The translations under genes and the position numbers were made by a program. Below the pieces are notes generated by a model, which saw only the letters and a program-made list of their open reading frames with translations, was not told the origin of the DNA and searched no databases. This document shows positions 60,030 through 63,263 of a stretch of DNA of 64,000 nucleotides, one piece after another (within the stretch, counting starts at the first letter, position 1; every line of letters starts with the position of its first letter). This stretch comes from Candidatus Nanoarchaeia archaeon (GTDB lineage Archaea > Nanobdellota > Nanobdellia > Woesearchaeales > GW2011-AR4): contig DATDOM010000066.1 in NCBI GenBank assembly GCA_035293285.1, forward strand, positions 20,249 through 84,248, written 5' to 3'.

Positions 60030-60055
60030 GCGGGTTTCGCTCTGCTCAAGCCCGC
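60030..60055 (-). terminator. hairpin immediately after the stop of the ahcY remnant (possible original ahcY terminator)
   Basis: GCGGGTTTCGCTCTGCTCAAGCCCGC with stem GCGGG/CCCGC. It abuts the TAG stop at 60055-60057. Confidence 0.3.
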
Positions 60056-60285
60056 TAAGTCCCTTCCTGCCAGCTTTCAAGATATTTTTTCTGTTCGGCA
60101 GTCAATACATCGATTGAGATTTCCATTGCATCAAGCTGAAGCCTTGCAATGTCGTCGTCTATCTGCCCAGGCAGCTGGATTACTTCCGGCTTCATTTTTC
60201 CCTTGTTCTTGACTGCGTATTCGCACGCAAGAGCCTGGCCGCAGAATGAAGTTGACATTACTTCGCTTGGGTGCCCCTCCGCTCC
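60055..60285 (-). pseudogene. ahcY: orphaned 3' end of ahcY (last 75 codons plus stop)
   Basis: Translates as (G)[38 protein letters not shown]...KKYLESWQEGT. By hand alignment 54 of 75 residues are identical to the C-terminus of the intact ahcY at 61998-62225. Confidence 0.85.
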
Positions 60286-60307
60286 TAATTTAAATTTTTA
60301 GATACAA

Positions 60308-60853
60308 CTACTTTATTTGCCCTGCTCTAATCTCTTGTGCGTAATGCGCAGCTAACTTAAAAAATTCTTCTAATTCATCTTGATTGTTGAAACGCTTTAT
60401 ATAAACCAATCTTCTTGTAGATTTCAAAAAAAGAAAAGCTGTGAAAGGATTTATAGAAACAAAAAATAAATCATAAAAAGCATTCAATATGCGTGGCTTT
60501 TTTTCTATCTTTTCCTCTTTTCCCAACCATTTTCTTGCAAGATGTTTAACAATTGGCAACTCATGACTGGTCAAATAAGTCTGAATGTTGTCTAACCAAT
60601 AATTTATTGCCTTTGTTATCTCGTTGGGATGTAATAGAGCTACGTGTTTAATGGCATCAACTACATCATCATCTAAAATCAAAACCAAATTCTCCCCGTA
60701 GTTAAATTTGAGCAAAGAACCGAAAATATGGGCTTGTATACTGCACCTTCTAAAATCTGAGATATTTTGTATTTCTCCTTTATCAATTATATCAACTTGG
60801 ATATCAGGATATTTATTTTTTATAATATCGGCAATTTGTTTTGATGTAAGCAT
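60308..60853 (-). CDS. hypothetical protein (181 aa) inside the HEG cassette
   Basis: ORF only, 18 nt downstream of the endonuclease gene. Confidence 0.5.
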   Translation of the reverse strand: MLTSKQIADIIKNKYPDIQVDIIDKGEIQNISDFRRCSIQAHIFGSLLKFNYGENLVLILDDDVVDAIKHVALLHPNEITKAINYWLDNIQTYLTSHELPIVKHLARKWLGKEEKIEKKPRILNAFYDLFFVSINPFTAFLFLKSTRRLVYIKRFNNQDELEEFFKLAAHYAQEIRAGQIK

Positions 60854-60871
60854 TTGATAATAATTTATTTG

Positions 60872-61771
60872 TCATGATTTAAATTTAACTAATTTTAAAT
60901 AAACTTCAATTTTCGATCTCTTTATAATGTGCCTGCTATCAATCATTTTAATAAATCTTAAAAAATCCCTTTGCCTTGTAATAACAATATTATACCACTT
61001 CCAGTTCCCTCTTGTTTCATTACAAACTCTGCTGTAAATTCCAACTTTATTCAAAAGTTTTTGAATATGTAAAGCATGAAACTCAGAATCAGTTGTTATT
61101 TTTATAGTTGGTATTGTAATTCTCGAATTTTTATAAATATAAATAGTTCCGTCACCGTCAAATAATCCAGTTAGGTAAGAAGATATTTCTTTTTCTGAGA
61201 AATCCAAATTAGGGTAATTTTTTGTTTTCCATCCTATCTTTTTTGCAATTATTCTCCCAACAACAGATGGAGGATAAGCGTAATATGTTTCATCTCTTTT
61301 GTCTTTCTTTATGTAAATTTTACATTCAAAAGTACTCCAGATTAAGCCACAAAATCTGTCAATCAATTCTTTGTGCTGATTAGAAAAATAGAATATTTGT
61401 CCTTTGCCTGATTTTATCAAGTTAAGATGCCCATCAGAATGAATGAGTCCAATTAGTTCAGGAGAAATATGGTTATTTTTGATACTTATCGATTTCGCAT
61501 TTCTTGATGACAAAATCAATGAATTTATACTTGAGTCTAATTTTAACATATCCAAGAATGAAAAATACAGTTTTGTAGATGGCTTGACTTTACCAGTTCT
61601 TATTTGATAAAGAGTAGTTTCATCATGATTTAAAATTTTTGCTAATTCTTTTATGCTGTAAAATTCATTAATTTTTTTGAATATTTTAATTCTTTCATCA
61701 CCCCCCCAGTTAACAAATATAGAATAATCTGTCAAATCTTCCTTTGTAATTTTTAAAATTGAATTTTCCAT
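60872..61771 (-). CDS. double-motif LAGLIDADG homing endonuclease with N-terminal HTH
   Basis: Motifs LIGLIHSDGHL and YLTGLFDGDGTIY. N-terminal ELAKILNHDETTLYQIRTGK. The ATG at 61771 (MENSILKI) is preferred over the longer tracked ORF. Confidence 0.8.
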   Translation of the reverse strand: MENSILKITKEDLTDYSIFVNWGGDERIKIFKKINEFYSIKELAKILNHDETTLYQIRTGKVKPSTKLYFSFLDMLKLDSSINSLILSSRNAKSISIKNNHISPELIGLIHSDGHLNLIKSGKGQIFYFSNQHKELIDRFCGLIWSTFECKIYIKKDKRDETYYAYPPSVVGRIIAKKIGWKTKNYPNLDFSEKEISSYLTGLFDGDGTIYIYKNSRITIPTIKITTDSEFHALHIQKLLNKVGIYSRVCNETRGNWKWYNIVITRQRDFLRFIKMIDSRHIIKRSKIEVYLKLVKFKS

Positions 61772-61997
61772 TTTAATCAAGCCTCCAAAGTTTTTTATTT
61801 TCCTGAAAACTTTGAAGTGGTAAGAAAAAGAGAATTTGAAGCGAAACTGCGTAATTGATTTTCTGGCAAAGCCAAAAATCATTATTTAGCAGTTTTGCGT
61901 ATTCTCTTTTTTGATTTGAAAATCATGTTAACTTAAATACTTGGCGTCGACAAATGTCCAGTGGCCAGTGAAAAAGAAAAAATAAGAAAAGTGGTAC

Positions 61998-63263
61998 TTA
62001 TGTACCTTCTTCCCAAGAATTCAGGTATTTAATTTGTTCTTCATCCAATTCGTCAATCACTACCCCATAAGCTTCTAACTTAAGTTTTGAAATGATATTG
62101 TCTATTTCTTCTGGAAGCTGGATTACTTCCGGCTTCATTTTTCCTCTGTTCTTTGCTGCATATTCGCAAGCAAGAGCCTGTCCACAGAAAGATGTGTCCA
62201 TAACCTCACTTGGATGCCCCTCTGCAAGAGATAAATTAACCAAGCGCCCTTGCGCAAGGCAAGTTATTTTATGCCCATTTTTTAGTATAAAATCCTCCAC
62301 TAATGGCCGGACTTCTTTCATACTTTTTGCTATCGATTTTAATCCTTTGTAATCAATTTCGACGTCAAAATGCCCTGAATTGCATATAATTACGCCATCT
62401 TTCATTTTTTCCATGTGCCTTGTCTTTATTACTTTAATATCTCCAGTCACAGTTATAAAAACATCTCCGCATTTTGCAGCGTCGTCCATTTTCATGACTT
62501 GGTAACCGTCGTACAATGCCTGCAAAGCCCTAAATGGGTCAATTTCTGTTACAATAACATTAGCTCCCATTCCCTTTGCCCTTAAAGTAACTCCTTTTCC
62601 GCAAGAGCCATATCCAGCAACAACAACATTTTTTCCGCAAACTAGAACATTTGTCCCCCGTTTAATTCCATCCCAAGTTGATTCGCCAGTTCCAAGATAA
62701 TTGTCAAGCAGATGTTTTGTCTTGTTGTCATTCACTGCAATCATCGGATATTTGAGTGCCCTGTCTTTTTCCATTGCCTTCAATCTTATGACTCCTGTTG
62801 TAGTTTCCTCACATCCTGCAATTATATCTTTAATCAGATGAGCGTGCTTTTGGTGTATTTCGCTGACCAGATCGCATCCGTCATCAATTGTAATGTGCGG
62901 CTTAAAGGCAATTACGTTATTCAGGTATCTGTAATAGTCTTCGCGGTTTTCTCCCTTGTATGCCCAGACTTTTATGCCGTCTTTTGCAAGCGCTGCTGCA
63001 ACATCATCCTGCGTGCTTAATGGATTGCATCCTGTGATTGCAACATCTGCGCCTCCTGCAATCAAAGTCCTTACAAGAATTCCTGTTTCTTTTGTGACGT
63101 GAAGCGCCATTCCAATCCTTACGCCCTTAAGCGGCTTTTCTTTTGAAAATCTTTGTTTGACTTTCATCAGGGCCTGCATCCTGGATTCTGCAATTTCTAA
63201 ATTAAGCAGCCCCTGCTCTGCAAGCTTCATGTCCTTAACTTCGTAATTTGCTCCTTTGTCCAT
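61998..63263 (-). CDS. ahcY: adenosylhomocysteinase (archaeal short form)
   Basis: 421 aa, uninterrupted. [43 protein letters not shown] and [14 protein letters not shown] motifs. Confidence 0.9.
   Translation of the reverse strand: [421 protein letters not shown]

Follow-up and report, generated by a model that had tools for sequence, protein, structure and literature searches.

A hybrid ahcY gene, its displaced 3' end and a probable homing-type LAGLIDADG endonuclease cassette on the chromosome of a DPANN archaeon

We analyzed a 64,000-nucleotide stretch of the 85.7-kb contig DATDOM010000066.1 (GenBank assembly GCA_035293285.1, Candidatus Nanoarchaeia archaeon, positions 20,249 to 84,248 of the forward strand), here termed the window, in which the adenosylhomocysteinase gene ahcY is followed by a free-standing LAGLIDADG homing endonuclease gene (HEG), a 181-codon open reading frame (ORF) termed orf181, and an orphan second copy of the last 75 ahcY codons. 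The intact ahcY is a hybrid with a front of resident type and a back of foreign type, whereas the orphan copy is the displaced end of the resident gene. We consider it probable that this arrangement was left by a homing-type cassette, which would have entered ahcY during the repair of a break and supplied a working replacement end. Judged from its sequence, the locus can be regarded as an archaeal chromosomal counterpart of the gene hybrids created by mobile ORFs (mORFs) in fungal mitochondria. Archaeal homing endonucleases are known from inteins and rRNA introns. In the literature searched we found no link of homing endonucleases with adenosylhomocysteinase and no description of such hybrids in archaea; per that literature, a free-standing endonuclease keeping an essential chromosomal gene working via a foreign replacement end would be new for archaea and for ahcY.

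The features of the locus, whose public protein records are HLG24503-09, are given below in window coordinates. P0108 is an AhcY homologue, and proteins resembling it, with a tail of the form ...EVMSTSF...LQLDAM..., are called B-type; clade A, or A-type, comprises about 65 close AhcY relatives. GC3 is the G+C content at third codon positions.

63399-63827, plus strand: Lrp/AsnC regulator gene, divergent from ahcY.
61998-63263, minus strand: intact ahcY, 421 codons (421 aa), with strong AdoHcyase Pfam matches.
62766..63263, minus strand: ahcY codons 1-166, the 5' part of resident type (mutual best match with P0108; GC3 0.41).
62685..62765, minus strand: stretch in which the left breakpoint of recombination falls, from codon 166 to codon 194 (maximum chi-square).
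62226..62684, minus strand: ahcY codons 194-346, putatively imported co-conversion tract of clade-A type (clade-A identity; GC3 0.31).
61998..62225, minus strand: in-frame replacement tail, the last 75 codons plus stop, putatively imported (clade-A identity; GC3 0.33).
61913..61997, minus strand: spacer between ahcY and the HEG, a T-rich run past the ahcY stop followed by a conserved promoter-like block (common to other loci).
61772..61912, minus strand: structured 5' leader of the endonuclease gene (folding versus shuffles, compensatory changes).
60872..61771, minus strand: free-standing double-motif LAGLIDADG HEG, 299 aa, HLG24507.1, with an N-terminal helix-turn-helix (HTH) region (Pfam).
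60308..60853, minus strand: orf181 (HLG24506.1), putative cargo gene of 181 codons (GC3 0.275).
60283..60307, minus strand: right junction of the putatively imported block, 25 nt from the orf181 stop to the orphan tail (no ahcY similarity upstream of the GCG (Ala) codon at 60280-60282).
60055..60282, minus strand: orphan tail, the displaced resident ahcY end of 75 codons plus stop with its frame intact (P0108 identity; GC3 0.54).
59398..59670, minus strand: resident downstream gene for a 90-aa winged-helix (wHTH) protein, the right flank of the event (GC3 0.44).

The two ahcY tails form the strongest coding duplication within the window, and the anatomy of the locus is plain from its alignment. 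The orphan and in-frame copies share 54 of 75 residues (35 of 38 in the first part and 19 of 37 in the second) and 160 of 228 nucleotides, and differ at many synonymous sites as well as at EVM(D/S)TSF. Recounting reproduced exactly the residue counts that had been made by hand in an earlier reading of the letters alone (the sequence-only reading), and the abrupt start of homology described there was borne out: similarity begins with the Ala codon of AEGHP, and upstream of this codon the copies cannot be aligned. The hybrid ahcY ORF is uninterrupted over its 421 codons and encodes full AdoHcyase domains, while the orphan tail has kept an open 67-codon ORF beginning with ATG, annotated publicly as a 67-aa AdoHcyase fragment. 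This duplication structure is not an assembly artefact, because both junctions are crossed at 100% identity by contigs assembled independently from other samples: contig L053 covers ahcY, the HEG and part of orf181, whereas L048 and L047 cover orf181, the orphan tail and the wHTH gene, L047 being identical to the window across the orphan tail. The hairpin that the sequence-only reading had assigned to the orphan copy (60030-60055) folds no better than shuffled sequence (z = -1.0), and a terminator at this place was rejected.

The polarity of the mosaic is established by comparison with relatives of the window AhcY, which are Woesearchaeota/Nanoarchaeota. Among the 120 homologues compared, P0108 and the window protein were mutual best matches over residues 1-170, with 161 of 170 residues identical (94.7%) and at most 156 identical for any other homologue. 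The orphan tail showed the same affinity, 71 of its 75 residues being identical to the P0108 tail (94.7%). The in-frame tail, in contrast, was identical at 67-72 of 75 positions to the tails of the approximately 65 clade-A proteins, but at 55 of 75 to that of P0108, and for residues 194-346 the corresponding values were 135-142 of 153 for clade A and 92 of 153 for P0108. Residues common to the window and P0108 in the front part are nearly missing from clade A (R107 in 0, Q138 in 1 and N106 in 2 of 66 proteins), whereas residues 194-346 include 31 diagnostic sites, every one of them A-type. Maximum chi-square analysis, run on triplets of the window, P0108 and a clade-A parent, placed the breakpoint between residues 166 and 194 with four of five parents (permutation p <= 0.0005) and at 147-194 with the fifth, P0011 (p <= 0.001). 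P0108 is matched at 13-14 of 16-19 informative sites to the left of the break, and clade A at 65-66 of approximately 69 to its right. The shift in GC3 coincides with this breakpoint, the values being lower for ahcY codons 194-421 (0.31-0.33), the HEG (0.22) and orf181 (0.275), and higher for ahcY codons 1-193 (0.41-0.44), the orphan tail (0.54) and the flanking genes (0.43-0.50).

As the P0108 identities, the breakpoint test and GC3 agree, the region from about 62684 down to 60283 (~2.4 kb) appears to be one contiguous foreign block and the orphan tail the resident end, in line with the sequence-only reading, in which the in-frame end was the foreign one. The opposite assignment, with the orphan as the foreign copy, had been prompted by the roughly 65 relatives matching the in-frame tail and by the odd GC3 of the orphan; it was ruled out by the N-terminal identities, the breakpoint test and the GC3 of the neighboring genes. 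orf181 is tied to the imported block by its low GC3 and was treated as cargo. The import would thus comprise at least 228 ahcY codons plus the cassette, rather than 75 codons. The earlier proposal, a cut about 75 codons from the end followed by repair with a donor 3' end, is hence supported as to replacement from a diverged donor and needs revision as to the length of the tract. Similarity of the in-frame tail region to the uninvaded alleles L041 and L042 stops at the stop codon. On the 1843-bp P0108 contig (ENA ERZ27296333), a 90-aa ORF on the same strand lies 183 bp past ahcY, recalling the order of orphan tail and wHTH gene in the window.

The HEG lies in an open frame at 60872-61882 on the minus strand, with M38 at 61771 as the likely true start, yielding the 299 aa also found in the database record and the homologues. 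The protein matches Pfam LAGLIDADG_3 (E = 2e-15; 57.2 bits versus a cut-off of 22.5), and a match to HTH_17 is sub-threshold (9e-05; 23.1 bits versus a cut-off of 27). Two LAGLIDADG motifs, LIGLIHSDGHL and YLTGLFDGDGTIY, follow the patterns GL.HSDG and G.FDGDG, and their residues G145, L146, H148, S149, D150 and G151 as well as G239, F241, D242, G243, D244 and G245 are invariant in 18 homologues. A search of PDB sequences gave no match at E <= 0.01, so that the protein has no close characterized relative there. The gene is free-standing, neither intron- nor intein-borne, as the sequence-only reading had held. A group I or II intron was ruled out by the Rfam scan of 59300-63500, which returned no family at E <= 1 and no intron RNA at the HEG, and an intein by the stop codon (61998-62000) and the 226-nt spacer that separate ahcY from the HEG.

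About 20 homologues of the HEG protein were found among 5.8 billion proteins, and their linkage to ahcY is strict: for homologues of at least 38% identity with enough flanking sequence, 13 of 13 loci adjoin the ahcY 3' end. The HEG is co-directional and downstream of ahcY in L001/L006, L003 and L004/L005, and convergent, approximately 10-50 bp from the ahcY stop, in L007-L012 and L023-L026. Uninvaded alleles, which the sequence-only reading had suggested seeking among relatives, were found in L041-L043, close A-type ahcY alleles with no HEG. In L003 the HEG stands between ahcY and the KaiC-like gene that is found close to ahcY in L041 and L042. Comparison of the window with L003 gave 74% identity for the HEG and 66% for AhcY, the reverse of the order in apparently vertical pairs (AhcY/HEG identities of 94/83, 90/72 and 79/61); this excess of HEG over AhcY identity indicates that the HEG family moved horizontally. 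Two HEG copies are degenerate, that of L001 by a frameshift and that of L012 by an internal deletion, which is the state expected when a homing cycle nears its end. Taken at sequence level, the family has a fixed address linked to ahcY, presence/absence polymorphism and a history that appears incongruent with that of the host gene. Among IMG/VR viral contigs, relatives of the HEG reached at most 30% identity, save one match of 45% over a 65-residue segment. Three contigs with ahcY and a member of the HEG family, L008, L011 and L012, were binned as Chloroflexi, Thaumarchaeota and Methanosarcinales metagenome-assembled genomes, respectively; they are either mis-binned DPANN contigs or reflect a broader host range of the element.

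The DNA between ahcY and the HEG has features of its own. A promoter-like block, CACTGGCCACTGGACATTTGT...TATTTAAG at approximately 61932-61975 on the minus strand, is common to the ahcY-HEG spacers of L003 and L004 and partly to that of L001, and several co-directional loci have the pattern CACTGG.CACTGGACAT.TGT...TATTTAA between the stop of ahcY and the HEG. The block is probably the element's own promoter, resembling a B recognition element (BRE) and TATA box, with TATTTAA as the putative archaeal TATA box. Downstream of it, the 141-nt leader (61772-61912) has a minimum free energy of -40 kcal/mol (z = -5.6), and none of 200 shuffled sequences folded as well. Its two hairpins are retained in L001 (5582-5725) with five compensatory pair changes, and the second pairs with the GGAGG just 5' of the ATG, which suggests translational repression of the endonuclease.

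The junction at AEGHP recurs in other genomes. Searching protein databases with the S-type orphan tail yielded many short AdoHcyase C-terminal ORFs, of which three could be placed in genomic context. In L062 (Woesearchaeota, JACPMX010000004.1) a full ahcY is followed by a convergent gene for a 410-aa Mrr_cat PD-(D/E)xK protein (Pfam 3.5e-9); the cassette (4191-6911) also contains a 261-aa ORF with a weak VRR_NUC match and a ribbon-helix-helix (RHH) ORF, after which the orphan tail starts as ...K-A|AEGHP and leads into a gene block syntenic with the uninvaded L041/L042. The L062 AhcY has a B-type head up to about residue 337 and is A-type only in the in-frame tail region, so that this locus would represent a minimal version of the window event. 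L063/L064 (5636-6835), likewise from Woesearchaeota, contain a full ahcY, a split copy of this Mrr-type gene and an orphan starting as ...W-S|AEGHP. In L065/L066 (8001-8249) an 82-codon orphan tail, starting approximately 4 codons upstream of AEGHP, is surrounded by ordinary housekeeping genes; neither the 8 kb upstream nor the 2.5 kb downstream contains ahcY, and no recognizable nuclease is nearby. The front of the gene has apparently disappeared or been relocated, the breakpoint being the same. Relative to AEGHP, the junctions of the four loci lie at 0, -1, -1 and approximately -4 codons, and those of candidate orphan ORFs lacking genomic context at approximately -3 to +10 codons. Each of the ahcY-linked AEGHP junctions carries nuclease cargo, a LAGLIDADG gene in the window and an Mrr_cat gene in L062 and L063, the PD-(D/E)xK fold being a recognized homing endonuclease family (PMC6083498). 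In both L062 and L063/L064 the Mrr-type gene runs convergently toward ahcY, and it gives a hint, below threshold, of homing-endonuclease-associated repeats.

We infer that the event in the window was initiated by a nuclease cut and that this cut lay at AEGHP. The starting state would be a resident B-type ahcY, orthologous to that of P0108, which suffered a double-strand break at or next to the AEGHP codons. A foreign A-type ahcY allele carrying the HEG and orf181 just past its stop codon would have served as the repair template. On the left, homologous side, resident sequence from about codon 170-190 to the break would have been swapped for donor sequence by co-conversion, and copying would have continued through the last 75 donor codons, the stop, the endonuclease module with its promoter-like block and structured leader, and orf181. 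The broken resident gene would have received the copied DNA on the right, at the AEGHP codons, through illegitimate or microhomology joining or else through annealing to an orphan tail that the donor already contained. We favor illegitimate or microhomology joining in independent events over the alternative of donor-orphan annealing, because the junctions scatter and downstream synteny between genomes is lacking. This would leave an intact hybrid ahcY, resident in front and foreign at the back, then the cassette, and downstream of it the stranded last 75 resident codons. The co-conversion tract reaches over approximately 155-180 codons in the window and fewer than about 10 in L062, and is beyond detection in L063.

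Whether the window LAGLIDADG enzyme itself made the AEGHP cut is a question on which we see the chances as evenly balanced, and several observations weigh against the model as outlined. The target site was deduced solely from junction positions, and the other AEGHP-junction loci carry a different nuclease (L062, L063) or none (L065). In L001, L004 and L044 the relatives of the HEG are followed by only the last 10-11 ahcY codons (KYLxSWxEGT*), as listed here.

L001 6632-6664; L004 3198-3230; L044 973-1008: ahcY remnants of 10-11 codons directly past co-directional HEGs.

The L044 remnant is fused into the HEG reading frame and forms the C-terminus of that ORF. The remnants resemble the end of the window orphan more than their own in-frame ends, for instance in an AGC Ser codon. 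They could stem from a longer orphan via one ancestral deletion, and could equally reflect a separate target at the very end of ahcY. Together with the convergent relatives, which abut the ahcY stop codon, they suggest that the target is the extreme 3' end of the gene instead of AEGHP. The proposal that the endonuclease targets the AEGHP motif thus finds support in the recurrence of the junction and is weakened by the position of the HEG relatives, by the short remnants and by the Mrr-type nuclease at the other AEGHP loci. Further, L004 keeps an S-type in-frame tail beside its HEG, and the pattern of S-type orphans and D-type in-frame tails is biased by the S-type query, a D-type 67-aa ORF (P0243) also being listed. 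The mosaic is a protein-level comparison with a single relative, P0108, and its left part is carried by about 17 informative sites in the conserved N-terminal half. Third-position identity to the available A-type alleles (L041, L042) is flat along ahcY, and therefore no close donor is in hand. Finally, a search of the same population, by contigs with identical wHTH or AsnC proteins, recovered no uninvaded ahcY allele; these contigs have the invaded form or break at 59791-59914 or 62909-63255. In the three lineages with short remnants, the remnants have their limits at the same codon.

These observations bear most directly on a scenario of two layered events, which we judge unlikely. Another nuclease, for example one of Mrr type or one acting in trans, would have caused the break at AEGHP, the tail displacement and the allele replacement, its gene being lost afterward, while the LAGLIDADG gene, separately targeting the extreme ahcY 3' end, would have come with the donor allele or later. 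Such a history would account for L062 and L063, which share the junction and have Mrr_cat cargo with no LAGLIDADG gene, for the remnants in L001, L004 and L044 and for the convergent relatives so near to the ahcY stop. It would also fit the position of orf181 between the HEG and the orphan; as orf181 is missing at every other HEG locus, the window cassette looks composite. However, no trace of an Mrr-type gene is present in the window, the window HEG is not followed by a 10-codon A-type remnant, and the uniformly low GC3 from ahcY codon 194 through orf181 suggests one imported block. Nor would the distance be unusual: the free-standing HEGs of phage T4 usually cleave at a distance of a few hundred bp from where they are inserted, so that for a HEG at the stop codon a cut 228 bp upstream would be ordinary.

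An allele replacement independent of any nuclease, in which the foreign ahcY back half and its downstream genes entered by homology-facilitated illegitimate recombination with the HEG as a passive passenger, appears very improbable to us. DPANN genomes exchange DNA frequently, and the event does combine a clear homologous crossover within ahcY on the left with a right side that lacks homology; yet four loci found separately have joins no more than about 5 codons apart, which random joining would not produce, nor would it put the HEG beside ahcY in 13 of 13 loci across distant lineages. We give still less credence to an element mobilized by an integrase and carrying a replacement 3' end in its attachment site. 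Prophage e14 and phage 21 integrate into E. coli icd in this way, the replacement 3' end being supplied by the phage, and the window has the same architecture, a hybrid gene and an orphan original 3' end flanking inserted DNA, with an abrupt start of homology. That integration is integrase-driven and precise, whereas no recombinase or integrase domain was detected by Pfam in any cassette ORF of the window, L062 or L063, the cassettes measure only 1.4-2.8 kb, and the junctions, counting loci and candidate orphan ORFs, scatter from approximately -4 to +10 codons, unlike a precise attachment core. A tract imported over approximately 155-180 codons upstream of the window junction would likewise not be a product of site-specific recombination. 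A chimeric assembly, like a plain tandem duplication of the end of ahcY, can be dismissed with near certainty: the contig is metagenome-assembled and several population contigs break near the region, but the contigs described above, from other samples and assemblers, span both junctions without a mismatch, and the copies, 70% identical in DNA, come from different ahcY lineages with differing GC3. The sequence-only reading had named duplications without an endonuclease in related genomes as the sign of such a tandem origin. This sign did not appear in the sense meant: the two window copies differ in lineage, and L062 and L063 also carry a nuclease gene. The orphan of L065 has neither ahcY nor a recognizable nuclease nearby.

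Among described systems, the homing-type cassette that we propose for the window comes closest to the mORFs of fungal mitochondria, in which a LAGLIDADG or GIY-YIG ORF brings a foreign C-terminus and displaces the native one, as in Allomyces macrogynus atp6, Glomus sp. atp6, atp9, cox2 and nad3, the atp9 gene of Rhizopus oryzae and cox2 of Mortierella verticillata (PMC3630166). Common to both are the free-standing LAGLIDADG ORF, the foreign C-terminal segment in phase, the native C-terminus downstream of the endonuclease ORF, and a native copy that is nearer to a close relative's gene than the inserted copy (for the window, at the protein level). The DNA identity between copies is also similar, approximately 64-81% in the fungal mORFs (PMC3630166) and 70% in the window. 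In contrast to the fungal cases, the host is an archaeal (DPANN) chromosome and the target is ahcY rather than an organellar respiratory gene; the replaced tract (at least 228 codons) is far longer than the duplicated tract (75 codons), the cassette holds the extra gene orf181, and the AEGHP junction is also used by cassettes with an unrelated PD-(D/E)xK nuclease.

A second parallel is offered by the free-standing homing endonucleases of T4-like phages, the Seg and Mob proteins, for example mobE (PMC2790892). Their genes, and on our reading the window HEG too, are intergenic, lie beside a conserved gene that is inferred to be cut at a distance in the endonuclease-less allele, and spread by break repair with co-conversion of flanking markers. 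Unlike the event in the window, phage homing relies on homology at either side, and no gene end is left in duplicate; in the window the right side lacks synteny between genomes, the displaced tail remains and the host is a cellular archaeon. SegF and SegG are further endonucleases of this kind, and I-TevI is a phage endonuclease with reported translational control, which the leader hairpin over the ribosome-binding site of the window HEG resembles. LAGLIDADG endonucleases of DPANN archaea themselves are known from group I introns in rRNA genes (PMC6125680). These belong to the same superfamily (LAGLIDADG_3 among others) and occur in the same archaeal phyla, but the window locus has no intron RNA, its target is a protein-coding gene, and function would be kept by a replacement coding end instead of by splicing.

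orf181 has 26 homologues of approximately 180 aa among 1.84 billion cluster representatives. None was found in any other fetched locus, including every other HEG locus, no match was obtained in Pfam, PHROG or PADLOC, and no relative was found in IMG/VR. The AF2 model of the protein is confident (pLDDT 94.8) and consists of two alpha-beta5-alpha repeats, for which Foldseek searches of PDB and BFVD returned no meaningful match; orf181 may represent an undescribed fold family.

As a tentative extension, which we hold to be possible though somewhat doubtful, the AEGHP...SF DNA of ahcY could be a homing hot spot shared among DPANN archaea and used by nucleases of two or more unrelated families, LAGLIDADG and Mrr-type PD-(D/E)xK among them. 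Repeated cut-and-repair would then have moved C-terminal halves of an essential enzyme between lineages, leaving orphan tails and sometimes an ahcY lost or relocated as at L065, with orf181 as a new accessory factor of such cassettes. Under the main model proposed above, the locus illustrates how selfish nuclease genes make a core metabolic enzyme evolve as a mosaic in DPANN archaea with reduced genomes, and it explains the short fragments annotated as 'adenosylhomocysteinase' in many metagenomes. The long conversion tract, the candidate multi-nuclease hot spot and the structured leader add to its interest. It also supplies reagents that can be tested: a new LAGLIDADG enzyme whose target, in a conserved gene, can be predicted; another nuclease family found at that address; and a conserved RNA leader, which may hold back translation of the endonuclease.

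Further observations concern the surroundings of the cassette. The DNA that separates the orphan tail from the wHTH gene contains a 57-bp repeat (59860-59916), which is also present at 33500-33556. Several population contigs (among L046, L049, L050 and L051) break at 59791-59902, beside the cassette, and L050 continues upstream of 59914 into 163 bp of unrelated AT-rich DNA that is not an ahcY tail; the contig ends and this variant hint at strain-level structural variation right by the cassette. On the other side, eight contigs from other samples (L054-L061) have an identical AsnC gene, L054 being a 98% variant among them, and all end within the first approximately 118 ahcY codons (62909-63255), which may reflect coexisting ahcY alleles. 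Elsewhere in the window, non-coding repeats of 70-250 bp, 74-92% identical and forming GC-rich hairpins, are interspersed at 6827-6900, 19803-19994, 22374-22564, 23753-23998, 28924-29115 and 56734-57066; they are not tRNAs and matched no Rfam family. Two exact 46-bp copies, 65 bp apart, are located at 53837-53882 and 53902-53947.

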